Assembly: GCA_965649765.1 (NCBI GenBank) | Contig: OZ287760.1 | Location: forward strand, 6,448,001-6,512,000 | DNA from: Bispira polyomma | Lineage: Eukaryota | Length of the DNA stretch: 64,000 nt | Direction: 5' to 3' | In this document: positions 4,828 through 52,792 of the stretch, piece by piece | Layout of the letters: each line of letters begins with the position of its first letter | How positions within the stretch are numbered: the first letter of the stretch is position 1 | Notes under the pieces: generated by a model | Told to the model about the DNA's origin: nothing | Databases searched by the model: none | The model's input: only the letters and a program-made list of their open reading frames with translations | Position numbers and translations under genes: made by a program

Positions 4828-6252
4828 CTACGGCAAGTACCTAAAGAAGCGTCCGTGTAGGACGAAGGGTAATGGTGTGGGTAGATACGCCGTGCTTACT
4901 ACGTTAAATGTTTTACCATCTAGCACCAGTACATAGGACAGCCTGGTAATGCCGTCCAGCACGATACTGGTGATCACCCCGTCATCCTCCTCCTCCTTTC
5001 CACCACTAGCCTCCAACCGGTGGATGAACGTCGGCTCAGAAGGGTAGTGGTTGTGCACGAACCAGTACAGGTCCCTGCCCCGGCACATGTCCTTCTTCAC
5101 GATGGCCACAGTCGCAAAGTCCCCGCGCTGCACGCTAGTTGATATGCCGTAGATGTAGCAGTATCTTTCGAAGCGGTACCTCTCGTTGATCGCTGGTAGG
5201 TCCAGGTACTGGATGAACTTATATTCCGAGGACACCTTCACCGCCTTCACTGTCCCCTCCTTCAAATGGATGGTGTACCTCCACAGACCACAGGTGGTCT
5301 TGATCTTTTTCCGCAGTGTCCCATTCCTCAGCACCGTCAGGTCCATCCGCGACAGGACGGAGGCGTCGGGATACACCGTGTAGTCCGTGATCAGGTAGCC
5401 GTTCTCCTCGTAGCTGTTGACGTTGTGCATGTGGATGCCGGATCTTATGTCTGCAGAGAACAGCATGCGGCCACTCGCCAGGTGGAACACGTGAACACGC
5501 GAAGGCTCTTTGGGCTTCCACTCTAGACTCTCCAGTAGTGTGGCTGCCGTCAGGACCCTTGTCTGGTCAATGTAAAAAGGGTCCGCGATCAGGACAGCGT
5601 AGTTTCTCGAAAGGCCGAACGAGTGCATGTACGGTATTCTGGAGATGGGCAGACTGACCAGCACTTGCCGCTCCTGTAGCACGTTCCCGATGCGGACGAG
5701 ATGCAGCCAGCTTGATCCAAAAGGCAGTGGGTCCCATTCACTCATCACTGTGATGAACGCCGTACTATTCCTGCTGTTGTATTCTCGTATTGGATGAGGG
5801 GAAGACAACTGAGGGATCATGTGGTTAAAGAAAAGCGAGTTGCCGTTGTTGCCAGACAGTGACGGGACTACTTTCTCGGCCGTGCTAAAGTCTTCTCTAT
5901 CCACCCGATACATCAGCCACGTCTCTCCCAAAATGTCAACGGCATCTTCCGTGTTGTTCTCTCGACGGCTCGGAAACCTATAGACATTGATGGCGGGATT
6001 GTCCACATTGTGTATCAGTGCCTCGACTTTGGCGAGTGGGCTCAGCGGAGGATCCGTTGGCGCAAGAAACATATAGGGCACAATGTTTCCCTGCCGCGTG
6101 GATTTGGTGTACGACTCGCTGAGCAGCATCCTCACAGTGAATTTCAGGGAATTCCCTCCGGTGAACTCGACCTTAGTCAGCTTGCCATAGGCGTCGAAGG
6201 CATTGGTGAAGGACGTCGGGCCGAGTTCAAACTGCCCCAGACCCATCTTGAT
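4828..6252 (-). CDS. Carotenoid cleavage oxygenase (BCO/RPE65/NinaB family), exon 2
   Basis: Acceptor TTCACAG|ATC at 6253/6252. All four Fe-binding His motifs are present (SPHP, PYMHSFG, MHNVNSYEE, LHGRF), plus GQFELG..FDA, GETW, PSEP and EDDGVI. Stop at 4828. Confidence 0.93.
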   Translation of the reverse strand: MKMGLGQFELGPTSFTNAFDAYGKLTKVEFTGGNSLKFTVRMLLSESYTKSTRQGNIVPYMFLAPTDPPLSPLAKVEALIHNVDNPAINVYRFPSRRENNTEDAVDILGETWLMYRVDREDFSTAEKVVPSLSGNNGNSLFFNHMIPQLSSPHPIREYNSRNSTAFITVMSEWDPLPFGSSWLHLVRIGNVLQERQVLVSLPISRIPYMHSFGLSRNYAVLIADPFYIDQTRVLTAATLLESLEWKPKEPSRVHVFHLASGRMLFSADIRSGIHMHNVNSYEENGYLITDYTVYPDASVLSRMDLTVLRNGTLRKKIKTTCGLWRYTIHLKEGTVKAVKVSSEYKFIQYLDLPAINERYRFERYCYIYGISTSVQRGDFATVAIVKKDMCRGRDLYWFVHNHYPSEPTFIHRLEASGGKEEEDDGVITSIVLDGITRLSYVLVLDGKTFNVVSTAYLPTPLPFVLHGRFFRYLP

Positions 6253-6695
6253 CTGTGAATGACACAGGAAAATGGATTTGAGCTTATATGGTCATAATAC
6301 AAGTGGCACAAAATTATTTCACGGTTCTTTAGCCATAAAATATGTTTCATACTCAAATATATTTTACATATTCATTTATTATGCCCCAACAGAGAATCCG
6401 GCCATTGGACAGAAGCAGTGACATGACCTTTTGTAAAATATCCAATGGCCTGAGTTGTAATATACTGGGGCATTGAGTGATTTCATTGTGCAAATGTGCA
6501 AATTGTTTTCAACATGGCGGTTTTTAGGTAATGCGTTAGTTTGTTTTATTAAATGACCTCTGTACGTATTTGTTAACCCTCTGTGTAATGCAAAAGAAAT
6601 CTAGCTGTATGGATAATTATATCACCCGACGGCTGTTGGACCGATAAAAATAGTGGGGTTATATTTTTTTCATGGATGTCTAATAAATACAAATA

Positions 6696-39209: not shown

Positions 39210-41274
39210 ATGCTGAATCTGGTGATATTTATTTGTTCGACATCACCTAGTTTTGCGAAAGGTACAACTGAGCAAGGGTCACTGATTACCATCGGTATGT
39301 CAGAGGAAGATCGCCAATTCACAAAACAGGACATGGACATGATTAGGGATGAGATAGCAATGCTAAAAGAAGCAGGTAAATGGCACAGTTTGTAAACATA
39401 GAGTCTCCTAGCTCCTCGTTTCTTTGTTGAAATGCACACTAAATTACTATGAAAATCACACATGAATGTTGTATGTGCATTATTAATAAGGTGTTTCCAG
39501 CATTTCTGTTTAATTGCAGTAAATTCAGATGTTTTGTTAGAGTTTATTTTATGTTTCTGTAATTCTTTTCAATGGTGAGTAAAGAGTTCCCCAAAGTAAC
39601 CAGTTTATACTCTGGTCAAAACAATGAATTGTTTGATAATTCATGGACCGGTTATACAAAGAAAAACACGATAACAGCTACTTGAAATTTACTTGCTAAC
39701 TATTGTACCTATGTTTGCAATACTGGAAATACATGATCAGATGGCAAATATACAGCAAATGGTCTCGACTGAACTCAAAAACATTAAAGACACAGGTCAG
39801 TCATTTGTTATACCTTTTTTGTGAATTCCTGTAACTTATACAATTCACTGTGGATAGGGCAAGGCTAACTGGACAGTAACACTCAAATAATGGATCAAAC
39901 ACGCATATCTACTATCACAGTACTAATGTTTACTATTATGTTTAAGGTTTAATTTTCATACTTTTTATCTGTGTTCATATGCCTAAATCCGACATTACTC
40001 TGCAGTATCCCGTAAATACTGGAATGTATTCAAATGCAACTCTGCCGTCAAGAAGAGGCAGTTTGACACTTCATATCCTCTGCTTGAATGCAGCTCCCCT
40101 TAAAAAGGCATGGTAGTTTATTAATAAAAAAATAACCAACCAAACAATCAAGCACTCTTTAAGGATTTTAACTTAAAAGCACGTACTACACAATCACTAG
40201 CCTTTCACCAAACTTGGGGGGGGGGGGCGCGGTGGCCTAGTGGTTATAAGCGTCAGCTTTGAAATCACTGGCCTCTCACCTCTGGAGATCAAATGGTTGC
40301 CAGTTCGCCTCCCCTCAATGTCTATGTAGGAAAGGTGGTAGTTCCTCACTGTAAGCCACCTTGATCAACTGTATCCAGCATTCCAACTATCCATCCCAAT
40401 ATAATCAAACTAATGGTACTAGAGTGAAAATCCAAATTCAAATTCAAACTCACCAAACTTGGATACAAATCCTGTTCATTCTTTCAAGTGTAAAAGTTTG
40501 TTAGGTACTTGCAACAGGTCAGTGGTTTACAGTGCTTCAGAACTGGTGTCTTCCACCATTGAGTTATGGTCATATTGATCTGACCTAAGCTATGACTTCA
40601 AAAGCAACTAAAACCAAATTCAAAACAAGGACATGTATATTTGATTATCATATCTATATATATTTTACCAAAAGCTCAGGTTTATCATATAATATTCAGA
40701 TATATTACAGTAAATGTTATCAAGGGCATGCAAAATTTAAAGTATAATTGTACTACACAAACTTTGTGCATAATAAATAACACTCAATCCTCATATATTG
40801 TTTTATATCTATAACACAGTTCAGAGGTATGTTTCAAGCAGAAGCATCAGTTTCTCTGCCTACATGGTCACTGATGAGATGATTTACCCTCCAGTAGGAG
40901 AAACAATCCCCTTCAAAGGTGTAGAGTTGAATGAAGGTGAAGCTTTCAACACCACTGACAGCATTTTTACTTGTCCCAACAGTGGTCAATATTTCTTTAC
41001 TGTTATGCTGTCCTCTGGTTTTCTGAACGATCCCAATAGGACAACGGTTAGGCTCGAGGTAGACAATACAAGTGTAAGTCGGACATGGTGCAGAAATACA
41101 GACACTGAGCATGCAGTGGGACTTCAGTGTTGTAACTCTGTAGTGACACAATCTCAAACTGGCCAGAAGGTGAGAGTTGCGTCATACAATGACGCTAACC
41201 AAATCCATTCCAGTAAATACAGCACATTTTCAGGCTTTCTTGTATATTCGGACATTGACCCGTGGCAGAATTGA
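39210..41274 (+). CDS. Secreted C1q-domain-containing protein (signal peptide, coiled coil, gC1q); exons 39210-39375, [39721-39795], 40820-41274
   Basis: gC1q motifs ISFSAY, IPFKGVELNEGEAFN, IFTCPNSGQYFF and YSTFSGFLV. Phase-1 donors GCAG|GTAAAT and ACAG|GTCAGT and acceptor ACAG|TT are in frame. Confidence 0.88.
40218..40449 (+). mobile_element. SINE family 1 copy nested in an older family-2 SINE, in a C1q intron
   Basis: Similar to 2481-2740; 13-bp TSD TCACCAAACTTGG at 40205-40217 and 40450-40462. Confidence 0.85.
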
Positions 41275-42354: not shown

Positions 42355-42840
42355 GAATTGGTTTAAAAAAAGGTGTGAGCAAAACACACATATAAACTTT
42401 GGATTTGATTCAGGACCTAGTAACAAGTGGTTTCGGGAGTTTAAGAAGAGGCATTCCAACATAAAATGGGAGGTGCCTCAAACTCTGGATCCGAGCAGAG
42501 CATCCCAGAGTGATGAATAGACGATAATAAAGTTTTTTTAACTTGCTAGGTAACTGATTCCTTATAACACAATATTTCCCTTAAATATCAGTTGAACTGC
42601 AGAATATTAGCCAACAGGTCATGTTTCTTAATTATTTTGACACAAATACTTTTTCAATATTATGTCCACTCAATATGTTCAACAAATATAGGAATATGTG
42701 TACCGAATAATACATATTAAAAAGAAAATTATTTGTGAACACTACAGAACGTGTTCTGAAGAAAAATGGCATTATGGATGTTGCAGGTAAAATATTCAAC
42801 TGTGGTGAAAGTGGCGTTAACAGTCATGTGCAAACAAGTT
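42355..42840 (+). pseudogene. pogo/Tigger-like (CENP-B HTH + DDE_1) transposase remnant with an intron
   Basis: GPSNKWFREFKKRH..PQTLDPSRA, donor CTAG|GTAACT, acceptor TACAG|, then IFNCGESG (the IxNxDETG motif with D to G). Confidence 0.7.
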
Positions 42841-43020
42841 TGGACCTTTATTGGCTTTCACACAAATGAACACTGATTTAAATTGTGCAATCCTATACAC
42901 ATATATGTACTGTTTGAAAAAAATGTCATGTTTCTTAATTATTTTGACACAAATACTTTTTCAATATTATGTCCACTCAATATGTTCAACAAATATATTT
43001 TTCGAACCAAGTTTGATTTT

Positions 43021-44497
43021 GTCAGCGATCCAGAATCCTGTGAACAGGCTGCCACCTGTTACACAGAGTACGATTTTGATACGATGCATGGACTATCTGT
43101 CACGGATCAGTCAGGAGAGCGTCCCAGCAGTTCCTATTGCTTCTGCTACACCACAGCCAAGGGCTCCGTTTGTACCTGTTGCTGCTCCAGCTCCAGTGTC
43201 TGCTTTACCTACATTTTGGATGGCATCACCTTCTGGGGTGATGACCCAAGTTATTGCTCTACCAACTAGGCCTAGCGAGGTTTTTATGCCTTTGCCTTGA
43301 ATGACTGGAGCTAGGCATACTTTAGTTGACTCACCTTTTGGGGTGAATCGACCTGAATATGGTTATGTCCTTCCCGAGTTCGCAGCTGTCAGTGCTGCTG
43401 TAGGGTCACCCTTTGAGGTGAGGAACCCGTCTGCTTTTGAGTACACTTCCACTCCGAGACAGTCTATAGTTTCACATACTACAACTCTCGCGCCAGTGGT
43501 ATGTTCTTCTCATTTGATGACCTTTATGTCCACTGGTGTCGTACAGACTAGTTGTGTGCAGAGTACCTCAACTACAGACAGTATAATTTCTCCTATACTT
43601 GCGATCCCTAGGATCTCCACAGAAAGTTTGGGTGAGGATTTAGGTGGAGTAGAACAGAAACAACAGCATTTGAAAGTGACCTTAGACAGTACAGGTACTC
43701 CTGATGATAGTGTGGCTTTTGAACAGGAGGATGAATGGGACGATCCAAGGGTGCAGGGTGCATCAGTGATTCACCCAGATGTAGGATTACCATTTCACCA
43801 CCAAATTGCACCGGAAGTCTTACTTATTGGCGCATGGTAATTGCTATTATGAATGCTGTGGGGATTATGAGATTGGCTAGTGATCCTTCCGCATCAATGC
43901 TTGGTTCATCTCCTCATGCGGAGATGATTGATAGTCATACTCATGTATCAGAAACCCGTTTGAAGTATGTGAAGATAGCTGCTTTGATGAACGTTTACTG
44001 TTTTCTGGATAAGGAAAAGTTTCTGTCTGAGGAACAAGCAGTTAAACAACCGGTGGGGAACAGTTCACCTGTTTTCCAGAATTTCGGAGAACATCCGAAA
44101 GTGTGCAACAAATGCAGTCAAGAAGCTTTAAATGCTGTTAATGCAGCAAGTCGGTATCCAGCCTGTGTGGCTTTTGGAGAATTTGGGTTGGATTACTCTA
44201 GTGAGAATCACAACAGGAAAAGTCAGAAGGACATGTTGAAAGAACAGTTATTTATAGCAAACAAGCGTCTTTTGCCTGTGATCATCCATTGCCAGGATAG
44301 AGCGTGCCGTAGTGAGGCTTTCGACGATTGCCTTCAGATTTTGTCTGAAAGTTTGTTATCAGCACATCCCATTTATCTGCATTGTTTCACAGGGGAAAAC
44401 AGATTTGTAAAAATTGGCTAGCAAAGTTTCCCGCAATGTACGGTCTACTCGTCTTAATGCGGAGGCATTTTTTAGATTGGCAGGGAAATTGAAATAG
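43021..44497 (+). pseudogene. Intronless ORF with low-complexity N-terminus and C-terminal TatD-like metal-dependent nuclease; degenerate
   Basis: TatD motifs IDSHTH, AFGEFGLDY, LPVIIHC and IYLHCFTG. After a frameshift/deletion comes the terminal helix STRLNAEAFF and stop TAG at 44497. In-frame stop at 43298 and frameshift near 43790. Confidence 0.82.
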
Positions 44498-44557
44498 AGA
44501 ATGGTGTTAGTGGATTCCCTTTTGAAGGGAATGGGGAGGAGGACTGTTTAGTACATT

Positions 44558-45111
44558 TGTTGTAGTGTTGTTTTCACCTAATGGGTGAGTGTATTAGTTG
44601 TTATTACCCTGTTCCTACCTACCTTGTTACTACCTTGTTACTAAATAACAAGTGATAAATGAAAAAGTGAAATATGATCATAGTTTCATAATGGAATCAG
44701 GTTATAGTTGAGTGATAAATAAAATTAATAATTAAATCAGTTAATGGCTGAGTGTTAAATGGATCCGAGAGTCTAATCGGCTATTAGCTGAGTGTGGTAT
44801 CACGGTGATTAGTGACATAGTATGCACGGCTGATCACAGGAATATTATCTGGATACATCAGTGATTAGCAGGATGAATTACTAGTGAATGTGTTGCTTGA
44901 TCTCGTAGTTTTCAGAAGGATACCACATGCAGGCCATCTCGGTCACACTGCCCCAACTCTTGTGACGAGTATATAAGCGGCTGTGGCAGATGAAGACGGA
45001 GCCAGTGTAAAAGATCATTTCAAATAGTAAGTTATATGTTAAACAGTCTATATTTATGTGTCTGTGTATTGAACCCATATATTAATGTATTCGTTGTATG
45101 AGAATACAACA
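44558..45111 (+). mobile_element. LTR (TGTTGTA...TACAACA)
   Basis: 7-bp inverted termini, internal TATAAG near 44972 and a GT-rich 3' part. Flanks ACATT/ATATT match 4 of 5 (possible TSD). A purine tract lies just upstream at 44524-44543. Confidence 0.7.
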
Positions 45112-45554
45112 ATATTTCCAAAACGTGGATAACGAGGCAAACGTATTTCTAAAATGGCTGATAATTTAAACATAATTGAAACGACTATAAAAACGTATTA
45201 AATGCATGTACAAACGTGTAAAGATGCGTACGGAACGTGTACAAAATTGCCCATACATTGATTATGCTACGTTTTCCCAATTTTCCTAGAGCTTTTCACT
45301 TTGTTTTCTCCTGTTTACGAAATTAAACGCGAACGGACTCAGTGTGACCACAGGATTAGTAAGAAAATTTATCAGAAAATATAAAACAGGAAATGATTTT
45401 ACCGCTAAGCAACCTTTTATGTTGAAACTTTACTCAATATAGCACGTCACAGCTAACAAACCTATTTTCTGTAACTAGTACTACTCATGTGGCAACAGAG
45501 TCACATCTACTCTCTTTAATGTACATGTAACCAACACAACTTTTACAGTGGGTG

Positions 45555-46740: not shown

Positions 46741-47409
46741 TCAGTGTACGACGCTTGATCATCAATTCCCATAAATTATAAATTTCTAAAGTTTATGAAT
46801 TTTAAACTTTTATACTCCTCAGCTGTTGTTAAAAAGAAAAAGAAGAAGCAGTCAGTAATTTGACAGTTAAGAAGAAAATTTTTTGAAAAAATAATAATAA
46901 TTTGTGTGTGAACCAGGTATCTGTACTTTTTGTAAATCACTGTGTTTTAGTTATATTCATAACAAATTACTGGCCATGGTAAAATGCAATTTTGAATCAA
47001 TGCAAAGAACTAGGATTATCTATGAATTTTCACATTTTCCCAGAAGAAACCAAGAACATATTTCTTTGTAACATTTATGAAAAACCACTATGCAATTTTC
47101 GGATGCTCTGAAAGATAAACAGATCAGTCCTATATAGGACTAAAGAGAAGTTGGTATGTCACTGGAAATGTTGATTTCCAATTGTTTGGACTGTTTCACC
47201 TATATTTCATGGATTAAAATAAACACAGTCCCCATTTGCAACTAGTTTGACGAATGAATAGTTTTTACAAAATTTTGTACCTGTTTCTGCTTTTCTACAA
47301 CCCCACATAAAATGTGATAAGGACATGCTATATTACGAAAGAGTATTGGCGCCACATTGTAGTGTTTTAAAATATCACATTTGTGTTGTTGAAGTTCAAA
47401 ACTTTAATA

Positions 47410-47790
47410 CTTCGCTGAAAACTTCAACAATACGCTAAAAACTTCAACAATATGCTAAAAACGTCAACAATACGCTGAAAACTTCAACAATACACTGAAA
47501 ACTTTACCACTACATTAAATACTTCAACACTATGCTGAACACTTCTTTAACAATACGCTGAAAACATATCATAAAGTTCTGGGAACAAGATAAAGTTATG
47601 GGAATGATATAATTATTTTGTTAAACGAGATAAAGTCGTGGGAACGAGATAAAGTCCTGGGAACGAGATAAAGTTGTGGGAATAAGATAAAGTCGTGGGA
47701 ACGACATAATCCCAAGGGAAAAAGATCATCTTGAGGGAGGAGATGATCTTGAGTGAATGAGATGATCGTGATAGAACAAAATTATCTTGA
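47410..47790 (+). repeat. Two subterminal tandem arrays (units about TACGCTGAAAACTTCAACAA and GGGAACGAGATAAAGTCGT)
   Basis: Directly visible tandem units of about 20 bp. Confidence 0.9.
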
Positions 47791-47799
47791 TTGAATAAC

Positions 47800-49420
47800 G
47801 GGCTTCAAAGTTTCAAATTTACTCCAGACACTTTCTGAGAATGATGTCCTCAAACTCAAATTGAGAAAGCAGTTGCAAAACAAATCCATGACTACCTTGA
47901 CAAACAAAAACTTGCTAGCTCCCACCAGTATGCTTACAGAAGTTTAACTCCACTGAAAGTAACCTCCTCTCCAGCAGTAATGTTGCGCCATAGAAGATGC
48001 CTAGCAGCAATAAAGGGTGTTAAAAATGCATAATAATAATTAACCTTGCTTTAAATCGTGATGAAACTGTAGCCCTCACCCTTCCTAGGTCTCTCAGCTG
48101 CTTTTGATACCATCGACCATGATCTATTTTTACCTGAAAAAGTGGTTTAGACTAAATGGCACAGTCCTAGCTGTATTAGATCATTTCTGACCTCCAGAAC
48201 CCCAAAAATCCAACTGGATGATCAGTTTTCATTCTCATTCAGCATACTTTTCAGAGTGTGCCAGGGGTCGGTCCTCTGACCTGTACTTTTTACACTCTAT
48301 ATACACATCCCCTTAGCACAGATATCAATAATCGCAATGTTAAAGATGATTGTATGCTGACGACACTCGTATATCATTATTATGCAGTAGAAAAATACAT
48401 TTTATAGAAATTTTCCAATTTGCTTACTGTATTTTCAATAACTTGACCATCCCTCTCTACTTTAACAGTAACAAAATCTTTGAAGGTATTGTGAAGATCA
48501 TAAGGAAGGATGTGGGGTGTTCAAAAGGGAACTAAGGGAGGGTGGGCGAATTTGAAAAGATGGAGTTTAAGCTTTTCTTATAAAACAGAAAGTCGTTCAA
48601 GTCATCTAAACTCACCAGGGGACTATTCCATAACATAGGTGCAGCAATAAAAAAAGTTCTAGATTCAACTCTGTTGGTAGGTTTTACAGAGGAAACAGAA
48701 AGTCTCTTTTTCCTTCTAAGGTCACTAAAGGAAAGGCAGTCAGCAAGGTAGGAGGGCTGTTGTAAGATAAAAACTTTGAAAGTAGTTATATGAATTGTAA
48801 ACAAAATATGATAATGAATGGGAAGCTAATGCAGTTTTTTGAGGCTTTGGAGAGACCCAGTGGAAAATCGGCTCAAAGGAATTGCAAGAGTCTAGACGGC
48901 TGCGAACAAGGAAATTTTAATATTTTGTGAAACTATTTTAATTATACGTTAAAATGGGAATATAATGTAAATAAAATAAATACATTAATATTAATAGTTT
49001 AACACATAGTGTTGTACAGTGTAACTCTACTAAAAATATTAAAAATAAAATTTCCCAAACTTGTTATAACTTGGTGTTTTCTGTGTTCATTTACTTGTTA
49101 AAAAATAACCTCTTCATTTTGAACTAGCTTAACTTGAGTTGGACTTGCTTTGAGCAACTTGGGCTTAGATCATGTTTGGTTGAAGACTGTGGGGAAAAAT
49201 GATCTCACTGTGATAAATTCATTACTACTAATACTACTAATAAATTCAGTTTTGACAAGGTTTAATTTCAATTTGGAGTAATTCATCCAAGCCTGGACTG
49301 AGGAGAGACAATGAGCAAGTAGACCAAGGTTTTTGTGGGCTTTGTGGGCGTTGATAGAAAGATAGATTTGAGTGTTATCAGCATACATGTGGTATTTAAC
49401 ATTGTGATTATAAATAATTA
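47800..49420. mobile_element. L2/CR1 LINE RT fragments (plus 47800-48370; minus 48530-49420) inside the TIR element
   Basis: LSAAFDTIDH, QGSVL and YADDT on plus; YADNTQIY..KLKLN and FFIAAPMLWNS on minus. Confidence 0.75.
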
Positions 49421-51294
49421 TTCAACTGATATGACTCTAATATCCATACGATTTAATTCCTGGAATATGCTTGCCTTTGATTTACAACAAGGTTCAAGAA
49501 ACGGCTTTTTTCAGATCCACCTATATTGTTCTAAAACAATTACCAAGCAGTTATGTTGGTTTATTGCATTTAAATTTATACTCTTACTTAAAGGTATTCA
49601 AAGGATATTCTTTAATACCGAAGTCCAGCCAACCCAAACCAGTAACTGTCATTACCCTACCCAAAGAGAAAAGCTTAAGTATGACCATTTATCAACTTCC
49701 AAGGTTCTTTGACAGAGGACCATCATTTTAAGATGCCATCCTATTTATCTGCTTGTTTCTGGTCCTCTGCATTCCTAAGCAAGTGTATTGATAGTAAATG
49801 AAGTATAGTGGCTTTTTAAGAGATTGAATGGTGAAAAAGTTACATGGATAAACAGTAATGTGACTTAAAGTTTAGTTTATTAATATTAATTGAGCCTTGC
49901 TGGTGTAATTGTACCACTTCCCTCCCACCTCTGCAGTTGTGGGGTTAAATCTCGAAACGAAAATATTGGAAAGTTGGCAGTTGACTTGATGATGGCCAGT
50001 GGTTTGTACAGCAGAAAACCATGACCAACTACTCTATTGATTTCTTCATTCAGTGGACTGCTCATCATTAGCATCTTCCCACCCTGGGATTTGAAACCAG
50101 ATGACAACCTTCAGACATATTAAAGTGAACAATACAGCATTCTAAAAATACTAGCTAAATTAATTATTTGTCCAAAACCGATGCAGCACTAGTTTCTGAG
50201 TCAAATAATCACTTCACTTAGCATTCAATGTTGTGTTGTAATGTATATTTTTAGCGTGTTTATTGATGTGAGGCATCTTCTTAAGTGCAATAACCTATTC
50301 AATCAACCAATCATGTGTCCTACAACATAGCCTGGGTTGTCATCAATAGGCAATGATGTGTTCACATCTTGCCTAGGGATGTTATCCCACCAGTGAAACC
50401 TCTAGCATCAATAATAAGTAAGATATGACACATTCAAATTCAAATGACCCTGGTTTGACCTTGAAGAGGAGATCTAACCAGCTCAATATACTCCCAGCCC
50501 ATGGTTTCCACAATATATTCCAAACCCTTAAAACCAATAATAGGTTATTATAAGACATAAGATCAAACGCATTAAAACTTTAGCGACCCCAGTGTGACCT
50601 TGAAGGGGACGAGATACATTAATAGGAAGGGGGGGTGTTTATATACCAGCTATTCACACCTCGGGGCAAGACAGTGTCAAAAATGTGTGCGTGTGAGCAA
50701 TTTCTCTATACATTTATCCCAAATCATTTCAGACTTCAGGGAAAGCCTCATATTACAAATTGCAGAACATGGGATGAATTTTACTGGTCACATGACTGTT
50801 TTAAGGTGAAGGTCGGCCGGCTTCCCCGCGCTTGCAGTGTATATTTTAGGACCAGGCCACATGTGTAGTATGTAGACCAGTGAATTAAAAAACAGAGGTG
50901 TCAGGAAAAATCTGACTGGCTCATTAGACTCCCAATCGATGGTTTCCTATTATCTTACAATGCATTTCATACCTTTTGGACCAATAATAAGTGAAATATA
51001 AGGCAATGTGTAAGTTCAAAAAATGCAATTATAACAAACTATCAGAAATCTCTAGGACTTCTGGTTTTAGAGAAGAATGCCAATGAGAACTGCAGAGTGA
51101 TGCCAATGTTTGCATGACTTCGTCAGCTGACATAATAGTGTGTAGTGTAGTTTCTATCTGTGTTAATCATGACCGAAAATAAGTAAATTTGTGTATTTGT
51201 CTTCCTCCAATGTAGCTTCGGCCTGTCACATTGTTAATATTTACCCTTTATTCTCAGGGTCATCTCATTTCCATAACATAACATCTTTTTTCAC

Positions 51295-52135
51295 ACAACT
51301 TTATCTCGTTCCGTTGACTTTATCTTGTTTCCACAACTTTATCTCGTTATAAGGAGATAATTATCTTGTTCCCATGACTGTATCTCGTTTGGATAACTGT
51401 TTCTCGTTCTCACGACTTTATCTCATTCCCACGACTGTATCTCGTTCCCATGACTATATCTTGTTCCGACAACTTTATCTTGTTATAACGAGATAACTAT
51501 CTTGTTTCCACAACCTTATCTTGTTGTAACGAGATAATTATCATGTTCCCACAACTTTATCTTGTTATAACGAGATAATTATCACGTGCCCATGACTTTA
51601 TCTCGTTGTAACAAAATTATCATCTCGTTCCCACGACTTTATCTCGTTATAACAAAATTATCATCTCATTCCCATGACATAATCTCATTCTCACGACTTT
51701 ATCTCATTGCCATAACTTAATTATCTCGTTATAACGAGACAACAGGTCCAGACATAAATCTTGGTGTCCTAAAAGGGACTTAGTAGTTTTCATCATTGTT
51801 GGCAAAGTTTTCAGTGTATTGTTGAAGTTTTCAGCATATTGTTGGCGAAATTTTCAGCATAGTGTTGAAGTTTTCAGCGTAGTGTTGAAGTTTTCAGCAT
51901 AGTGTTGAAGTTTTCAGCGTATTGTTGAAGAAGTTTCCAGCGTATTGTTGAAATTTTTCAACGTATTTTTGATGTTTTCAGCGTTGTGTTGAAGTTTTTA
52001 GCGTATTGTTGAAGTTTTCTGCATATTGTTGATATTTTCAGCGTATTGTTGAAGTTTTTAACGTAGTGTTGAAGTTTTTAAAGTATTGTTGAAGTTTTCA
52101 GCAAATTGTTGAAGAAGTTTCCAGCATATTGTTGA
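51295..52135 (-). repeat. Inverted, expanded copies of the two subterminal tandem arrays
   Basis: ACTTTATCTCGTTCCC-type units at 51295-51740 and TTGTTGAAGTTTTCAGCGTA-type units at 51795-52135. Confidence 0.9.
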
Positions 52136-52792
52136 AGTATTGAACTTCAACAACACAAATGTGATATTTTAAAACACTACGATGTGGCGCCAATACTCTT
52201 TCGTACTATAGAATTTAAATAAATTTTGTCTTAAAAGAAGAGAGTTCGAGTGTTTATTTGACATTTATTATATATTGCAGACTTATTGCAAAATATTTAT
52301 TCAAACAGTCAACTAATGCTTGTCATCCATGCAGTTTTAATATAATGGAACTTTGGTCCAAAATTGTTCTAAACTCCTAGTAATTCTCACCTCGTTTGAT
52401 CTTATTTGACAAGAGGCATTTTACATTTTGAACAAATGTTCCCTATTTGTCCAACCAAAATTGTCTTGTGGTTATTTCCCCCACTCTCTGGACAACATAT
52501 ACATGTGGTACTCTAGTTTCATATTTGATGTAAATGAAGTTTTAATGCAGTTCATTCGGTTCATTATAGCACCAATACTTCTTTAAAGTTTGATATTTGT
52601 TCAAGAATATACCATTGTTATAATATTCGCAATGATAATACTGGAATGTATTGTTTTTAGTGCAAATGTGCTAATTGAACAGAAACCAGTGATACAAATC
52701 CATTCCCAAAATATGGAGTCCTCAGGACGCGACCATTGCTCAAAATTGGTTTGTTTGTCTGAGTGTCCTGTATTGAATCTCTTGACTTTACT

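Follow-up and report, generated by a model that had tools for sequence, protein, structure and literature searches.

A 64,000-nucleotide stretch of the Bispira polyomma genome (contig OZ287760.1, positions 6,448,001–6,512,000; C13:6448001-6512000 in the 1.035-Gb genome that we searched, and hereafter the window) holds, at positions 42998–45111 of its forward strand, a dead, cut-down 3′ fragment of a Ty3/Gypsy retrotransposon. In identity and in architecture, the fragment almost certainly represents a lineage of long-terminal-repeat (LTR) elements in which a third open reading frame (ORF3) carries a TatD nuclease. An earlier reading made from the window's letters (the sequence-only reading) had proposed as much when it described a 3′ remnant of an LTR lineage in which an additional ORF, encoding TatD, occupies the place of env; that inference is supported, though it was built on landmarks that proved partly wrong. 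The interest lies in the lineage, the window copy itself being ordinary.

The TatD piece of the window, used as query, returned 97 matches among 149 candidates in the genome, and the Pfam TatD family returned at least 151 (150 of 296 candidates scored). About ten copies, 69–84% identical in protein to the window copy, are collinear with 42998–45111 and continue upstream into integrase, RNase H, reverse transcriptase (RT), a CCHC gag and a 5′ LTR. We examined 98 loci besides the window, comprising 80 of the 102 not previously fetched among the best 120 matches of the family search and 18 from the search with the window piece. Integrase lay upstream on the same strand in 67 of these 98 loci and RT in 61 (either in 69, both in 59), and an LTR lay within 2.5 kb downstream in 87, as judged with an LTR library derived from the same loci. 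In all, 95 loci had pol or an LTR, and three had neither.

The paired LTRs and target-site duplications (TSDs) that the sequence-only reading expected of true copies are present in the dispersed copies, as are primer-binding sites (PBSs) and polypurine tracts (PPTs). The full layout is LTR–PBS–gag–pol (protease, RT, RNase H, integrase)–stop–ORF3–PPT–LTR with 4-bp TSDs, and full-length sisters of the window copy measure 10.2–10.8 kb. These sisters contain Pfam zf-CCHC, RVT_1, RT_RNaseH and rve pieces, and a locus from another organism (L173) has zf-CCHC, protease, RVT_1, RT_RNaseH, Integrase_H2C2 and rve in Gypsy order, with open frames for gag (770 amino acids), pol (1664) and ORF3 (543) in the same succession. 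The C terminus of pol bears an RxRxxPxxLxxY-type motif followed by a stop and then ORF3. Fusion of TatD to integrase in autonomous elements was considered and rejected, because the pol stop precedes ORF3; in P0011 of Mytilus coruscus an integrase zinc finger is joined to TatD, in the gene model only. The PBS behind the 5′ LTR is TGGTACCAG or TGGTGTCAG, which we take to match tRNA-Leu, and a purine tract abuts the 3′ LTR. LTRs of the lineage run TG...CA/TA. Alignment of six sister 3′ ends places the start of the window-family LTR, TGTTGTAGCC, right after the purine tract and its end at AATACAACA; undeleted copies have LTRs of 214–225 bp, TGGTACCAGAAG follows the 5′ LTR, and 4-bp duplications flank the element. 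The four LTR pairs of the window family are 90–93% identical, so this family is old; those of other families are 85–99% identical.

Judged by their RTs, the TatD carriers are a single clade. In a quick LG+G4 tree, from which three of 30 outgroup rows were omitted for stops, 22 carriers including L173 fall on one side of a branch and 27 other RTs on the other (SH-aLRT 99). A TatD domain, or the 'PPN' domain that accompanies it (see below), was found downstream of none of the 30 outgroup Gypsy RTs (at most 53% identity) and downstream of 6 of the 10 closer RTs for which no TatD had been listed before. A sister lineage has a Baculo_F env in the ORF3 slot (L264:1438-4104, minus strand, E 1.7e-10). 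Other sister Gypsy lineages (L247, L249, L250, L256, L258-L260, L266, L267 and L269) carry C2H2 zinc-finger ORF3s, on weak Pfam hits, and zinc-finger ORF3s of this kind seem widespread and undescribed. The gag of the TatD clade starts with a helix-hairpin-helix motif (L170:2602-5214 and L173:12-2321; HHH E 2.6e-5 in L170), possibly a DNA-binding addition. Named mollusc Gypsy clades include MolGy1-16, Mag and CsRN1 (PMC6238403).

Aligned with its sisters in collinear blocks of 75–94% DNA identity, the window copy proves to be 5′-truncated and internally deleted, retaining parts of ORF3, the 3′ untranslated region (UTR) and part of the 3′ LTR, all on the plus strand. It had been read as one intronless ORF. 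Sister homology begins at 42998, already downstream of the sisters' ORF3 start, so 43021 cannot be a start, and the copy has stops, frameshifts and five internal deletions (~485 bp at 43775, 72 bp at 43952, ~214 bp at 44441, 415–555 bp near 44643 and ~117 bp at 44950). It no longer has the ORF3 start, most of a zinc-finger domain, the PPT, the beginning of the LTR or the catalytic E-S-D motif. What remains of ORF3 comprises a low-complexity N-terminal part rich in proline, serine, threonine and valine, its start gone (42998–43775); the C-terminal end of the zinc-finger/'PPN-HWR' domain (PPNCTGSLTYWR, 43773–43870), the remainder of which lay inside the ~485-bp deletion; and a broken TatD domain (43927–44497). 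These parts occupy two frames: the N-terminal part is in one, with stops at 43298–43300 and 43838–43840, and the TatD core is in a second that ends at 44421. The TatD motifs reported before are all there (IDSHTH at 43927–43944, GEFGLDY at 44176–44196, IIHC, LHCFTG and TRLNAEAFF), the last of them back in the first frame after a frameshift near 44390–44420, and the final stop is a TAG at 44495–44497, where it had been placed. Pfam TatD_DNase (PF01026) matches 43735–44418 with E 2e-25. The domain keeps HxH, GE, IHC and HCF; it contains the 72-bp deletion and the ~214-bp deletion, the latter having removed E-S-D.

Downstream of the stop, the landmarks on which the sequence-only reading relied exist but mostly mean something else. 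The 3′ UTR (44498–44950), which aligns with internal sequence of six sisters, includes them all. The 8-bp stem at 44514–44532 is present and can still pair in all seven copies in which the motif was found (11 tried), but it does not exceed chance, there being 18 such stems in the 64 kb. The purine run at 44533–44544 and the TGT at 44545 are likewise in the sequence, but as internal 3′ UTR rather than as PPT and LTR start, since the sisters have them (44533–44547) in the same place, ~1 kb before their LTR. The proposed LTR at 44558–45111 does begin with TGTTGTAG and end in TACAACA, but 44558–44950 is 3′ UTR, and the LTR survives only at 44951–45111, as its 3′ three-quarters, which match both sister LTRs and have a TATA-like box near 44972. 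The deletion at 44950/44951 took out the real PPT together with ~60 bp from the start of the 3′ LTR. An independent solo LTR at 44558 was rejected, the stretch being collinear with internal sequence of sister elements, and ACATT/ATATT is therefore not a TSD. The ATAT at 45112–45115 is, to judge from the TSDs of sister copies (ATAT, CTAT, ATAT and ATAG), probably the 3′ half of a 4-bp TSD whose 5′ half has been lost.

At the other end, the truncation point adjoins the second copy of a 78-bp direct repeat (42920–42997, plus strand; copy 1 at 42613–42690), which lies inside a Tc5/pogo-like transposase remnant (HTH_Tnp_Tc5 match weak, E 0.025, below the cut-off) and is likely to be the scar of the deletion that removed the element's 5′ part. 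We also compared public DNA contigs from three runs whose type is not recorded, that behave like genomic DNA and that come from at most two samples of one study, possibly the source. The remnant has about ten times the depth of its single-copy flank, and loose contig ends at 44950 and 45111 agree with its borders. Because the loose ends behind 45111 match the sisters' PBS, they confirm the LTR end at 45111. No contig in the three runs spanned the remnant or an empty-site joint.

These data leave scarcely any likelihood to the explanation that the window contains a cellular or domesticated TatD gene beside an independent solo LTR. It could draw on the three of 98 loci that have neither pol nor LTR and on the absence of the family's gag and pol from the window, where the sequence-only reading had already noted it, and from 10 kb on each side (84 kb in all). 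Yet the supposed solo LTR is sister-element sequence, the window copy is broken, and the host TATDN2 is a separate, spliced gene with at least seven exons at ~C4:31.115-31.136 Mb. The product of this host gene groups with octopus and mussel proteins.

Across the lineage ORF3 is ~480–1000 residues long and consists of a low-complexity N terminus, a basic patch, the finger/helical domain, a linker and TatD. In 15 of 16 ORF3s, the 14 residues that lead up to the zinc finger include at least four lysines or arginines. The finger (C-x2/4-C...H-x4-H) runs into a helical domain with a PPN...LxHWR end, and its fold is predicted confidently (predicted local distance difference test score 93.7). Pfam, PDB sequences, and Foldseek against PDB and viral structures yielded no relatives of this domain, the best VIA match had Z 3.4, and an Atlas search returned generic C2H2 clusters only (0.87-0.90); such an absence of matches does not establish a new fold. 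As for features of an env gene, Pfam and hydropathy analysis gave no Baculo_F match and no transmembrane segment, and the best 19-residue hydropathy is below 1.6 in 16 of 17 ORF3s versus 2.42 for the env of L264. By its residues (HxH, GE, H, H, E-x-D) the TatD domain belongs to class II (HxH), as defined in PMC10085689. The equivalents of Escherichia coli E91, E201 and D203, which correspond to E593, E705 and D707 of TATDN2 (PMC10711561), are present in 91 of 97, 90 of 95 and 90 of 95 loci, each of the two middle histidines in 95 of 98, and the HxH positions in 88 and 83 of 89; all five non-HxH metal-site residues are found in 77 of 94 covering loci, the window copy lacking E-x-D. Because this census scores an expected residue if any frame shows it, the counts carry a small upward bias.

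These residues have been kept while the domain diverged. Its unbroken copies form eight clusters, 26–63% identical, besides the window's own group, and in 7 of 7 comparisons between families the proportion of synonymous sites that differ (pS, 0.77–0.91) far exceeds that of nonsynonymous sites (pN, 0.23–0.42); a test of dN/dS among copies had been proposed by the sequence-only reading. Taken together, the sequences make it very probable that an active nuclease has been retained for the element's benefit. Two observations would suit TatD as passive cargo, a captured TATDN2 retrocopy of no benefit: every copy seen in this genome is decayed, and the ratio dN/dS (omega) within families (13 pairs; unbroken ORFs only, which biases it downward) is 0.23–0.73, not clearly below the decay baseline. 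That explanation is nonetheless very improbable and already largely refuted, because catalytic residues persist across families so far apart, the amino-acid sequence has been preserved despite saturation at synonymous sites, L173 from another organism has this layout with its frames open, and TatD is fused to an element-specific zinc-finger domain that a motif search did not find in any of nine TATDN2 proteins.

What such a nuclease might do for the element is suggested by analogy with its nearest cellular relative. Human TATDN2 breaks down R-loop RNA, depends on E593 and E705 to do so and binds through its disordered N terminus (PMC10711561), and medaka tatdn2 degrades R-loop RNA in germ cells (PMC12709183). 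We tentatively favor, at a level just short of probable, a role of the ORF3 TatD as a nuclear 3′ ribonuclease that clears R-loops at the element's own transcribed copies. ORF3 would be expressed by way of a subgenomic mRNA from which splicing has removed the PBS, gag and pol; the basic patch would carry the protein into the nucleus, where the zinc-finger and disordered parts may bind nucleic acid; and there the enzyme, like human TATDN2, could trim the RNA of R-loops or structured RNA and so help the germ line to keep producing full-length element RNA. Sequence motifs favor a separate, spliced, nuclear protein: several families have a U-rich tract and an AG, resembling a splice acceptor, directly before the ORF3 ATG, and 25 of 39 copies have a donor-like motif within the final 30 nucleotides of their 5′ LTR, compared with a background of 1.6%. 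The basic patch and the lack of a membrane anchor fit the same picture.

A number of observations weigh against this role or the lines of evidence behind it. The set of donor motifs was chosen after the LTRs had been seen, and no donor-like motif occurs at the end of the 5′ LTR in the window's own subclade (absent in 7 of 7 copies, L102 left out). TATDN2 has minimal activity on plain RNA–DNA duplexes (PMC10711561). TatD enzymes also act on single-stranded and abasic DNA (PMC10085689), so belonging to the family does not by itself reveal the substrate. No significant difference separates shared from private changes within families (Fisher P 0.11, 0.17 and 0.85), and the evidence for selection therefore comes from the deep comparisons. 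The zinc finger is only weakly similar to the ORF3s of sister lineages (E 0.001 pairwise, E 1.7 in another search). One tree, with bacterial TatD as outgroup, unites the element TatDs in a single clade (96/89) next to a group of mollusc and arthropod TATDN2 (100/98), but it has 41 rows with 18 omitted; a larger quick tree of 59 rows gives 95, and both trees are made up of element TatDs, TATDN2 and bacterial TatDs, to the exclusion of TATDN1 and TATDN3. Finally, the layout of one family that has lost pol points to TatD acting inside the particle.

Pol is missing from 29 loci, 12 of which show an LTR pair with a PBS, and gag-like ORFs accompany TatD in those inspected (all but one short copy). 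In one such family (11 copies examined, eight with paired LTRs and TSDs of their own), which has lost the zinc-finger domain, two common deletions leave just 80 codons between the start of pol and TatD, downstream of the heptamer TTTAAAC in which gag ends, and TatD remains in the pol frame in 7 of 11 copies, five of them without a stop. Heptamers of this pattern are −1 frameshift signals, and a −1 shift here would yield Gag–TatD. Two other groups without pol (L149/L170/L091, and L132) also retain gag and ORF3. Differences fixed between the pol-less family and its autonomous relatives have an omega of 0.28 (P 3e-5 against the site ratio), which suggests selection on the pol-less branch. All of this could be accommodated if TatD worked in or with the virus-like particle, trimming RNA remnants or cDNA 3′ ends, nicking abasic or uracil-derived sites, or cleaning up the integration gap, and TatDs include 3′ exonucleases and apurinic/apyrimidinic endonucleases (PMC10085689). 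We consider this rather unlikely. An in-frame junction is expected by chance one time in three; private changes too have omega 0.45–0.78, so that along the pol-less branch selection is not distinguished from baseline decay (Fisher P 0.11); the element already encodes an RNase H; and in autonomous elements a stop and a splice-acceptor-like site come between pol and ORF3, which has a basic patch resembling a nuclear signal.

TatD also diverges faster than RT, with amino-acid identities of 63% versus 93% and 58% versus 84–88% in matched pairs. Such speed is typical of genes in conflict and would suit a counter-defence or competition factor that degrades either RNA or cDNA made by competing elements or the host's small-RNA guides and the precursors of these guides. 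A TatD-like nuclease is reportedly part of the Qat anti-phage system (PMC13434339), and on two contigs (L175:1335-8801 and L176:2788-8801) an intronless TatD ORF lies ~1.1 kb behind a Helitron Rep-Pif1-OTU ORF, as if unrelated mobile elements wanted the same enzyme. The Helitron-linked TatD is TATDN2-like, on a branch apart from the LTR clade, and its carriage by a Helitron is putative. A counter-defence role appears doubtful to us, however, because piRNA 3′ ends are 2′-O-methylated, which hinders 3′ exonucleases, and because rapid divergence may instead reflect weaker constraint or the swapping of ORF3 modules. Synonymous divergence differs too, being 0.80 and 0.91 in TatD versus 0.39 and 0.53 in RT (L092 versus L074, and L097/L093 versus L101), which suggests that ORF3s have been exchanged between families.

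As to origin, the 41-row tree places the element TatDs as sister to animal TATDN2, not within it. The medians of phmmer scores for four full domains are 80–96 bits to TATDN2 versus 47–68 bits to bacterial TatD, and one of the four scores 31 bits against human TATDN3. The elements stand outside the group that mollusc and arthropod TATDN2 make up, so the capture looks older than the split between molluscs and arthropods, although long branches could mislead. An ancestor with a zinc-finger ORF3 would have acquired TatD from the TATDN2 lineage once, long ago.

Beyond this genome, ORF3-type proteins form clusters of 30–115 members on long ENA contigs. Of 37 metagenome loci, seven match without introns; the other 30 match over short stretches only, and those inspected are exons of TATDN2-like genes. 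The host range of TatD elements rests on few records. Two proteins from metagenome-assembled genomes annotated as 'TatD family hydrolase [Sedimenticola sp.]' (P0008 and P0086) have the zinc-finger/PPN–TatD layout, and P0008 falls in the element clade; both are likely host retrotransposon DNA in bacterial bins.

The literature we searched, with Repbase reports, subscription journals and supplements outside its scope, yielded, as judged from search results, no description of TatD in a mobile element; in PMC6962438, TATDN2 figures as a label in the legend of a Hox-cluster figure. The nearest precedent is the DEDDy 3′–5′ exonuclease encoded by ORF3 in two bdelloid-rotifer LTR retrotransposons, Juno and Vesta (Rodriguez et al. 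2017, PMC5408684). Like the elements described here, these are Gypsy-type and carry in the env slot an enzymatic nuclease (catalytically intact, by prediction in our case) of a type found also in an unrelated class of mobile element; unlike them, our elements have a TatD (a TIM-barrel enzyme with HxH) that follows a long disordered region and a zinc-finger/'PPN-HWR' domain, TatD is the mark of a single old clade of RTs, and the other type of carrier is seemingly a Helitron. Cellular TATDN2 resembles the element protein in being a class II HxH TatD at the C terminus of a long disordered protein (PMC10711561, PMC12709183), in the E593, E705 and D707 equivalents, in a cysteine at the NFC/VFC position and as the nearest group in the tree, whereas the element TatD is intronless, multicopy, housed in LTR elements and faster evolving, has the extra zinc-finger domain and lies outside the mollusc-plus-arthropod TATDN2 clade. 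With env-bearing Ty3/Gypsy elements (errantivirus-like; L264) the lineage shares a third ORF after pol, a splice-acceptor-like site before it and related RTs, but its ORF3 is predicted to be a soluble nuclease. For the postulated steps an analogy is offered by CERV of Caenorhabditis elegans Cer1 (PMC10309623), a Gypsy-type accessory protein described as nuclear, made from a spliced mRNA and acting on element RNA; by that description, to which the comparison is confined, CERV is an RNA-export factor and not a nuclease.

The lineage brings a new class of enzyme to the few accessory genes known from LTR retrotransposons, one tied to a germ-line R-loop nuclease, and makes directly testable whether mobile elements manage their own RNA–DNA hybrids. 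Many intronless 'TatD/TATDN2' annotations in invertebrates, as well as some entries placed in bacterial bins (P0008, P0086), are probably retrotransposon genes. More speculatively, and as a composite that we hold with considerable reserve, an ancient cross-phylum Gypsy clade may have equipped its third gene to manage R-loops or small-RNA silencing, by means of a nuclease of TATDN2 type and a zinc-finger/helical domain not described before; the enzyme would be of enough use for parasites without pol to have kept it, one family joining it to Gag by a frameshift in place of Pol, and Helitrons would have come by it separately.

Elsewhere in the genome, 25 near-identical 3′ fragments of a related element, each ~580 bp and made up of 3′ UTR, PPT and LTR, are either no more than ~0.7 Mb away from the end of a contig or part of a small contig (for example C10:51691-52271, C7:23121-23701 and C12:49.13-49.28 Mb; L069/L070). 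The one contig-end fragment inspected sits among tandem repeats, without TatD, and these fragments probably spread through subtelomeric duplication. In the window itself, the LTR end is followed directly by a very high-copy short repeat (45118–45385) with a summed contig depth about a thousandfold that of the single-copy flank, and a C1q-domain frame (40777–41274, plus strand, E 1.3e-14) lies 1.7 kb upstream of the remnant. Farther away are a foldback-like element whose long inverted arms consist of 19–20-bp tandem repeats (47325–52214) and an unbroken 487-codon frame of the RPE65/carotenoid-oxygenase family (4828–6291, minus strand, E 1.3e-58), odd for an animal family whose genes are usually spliced.

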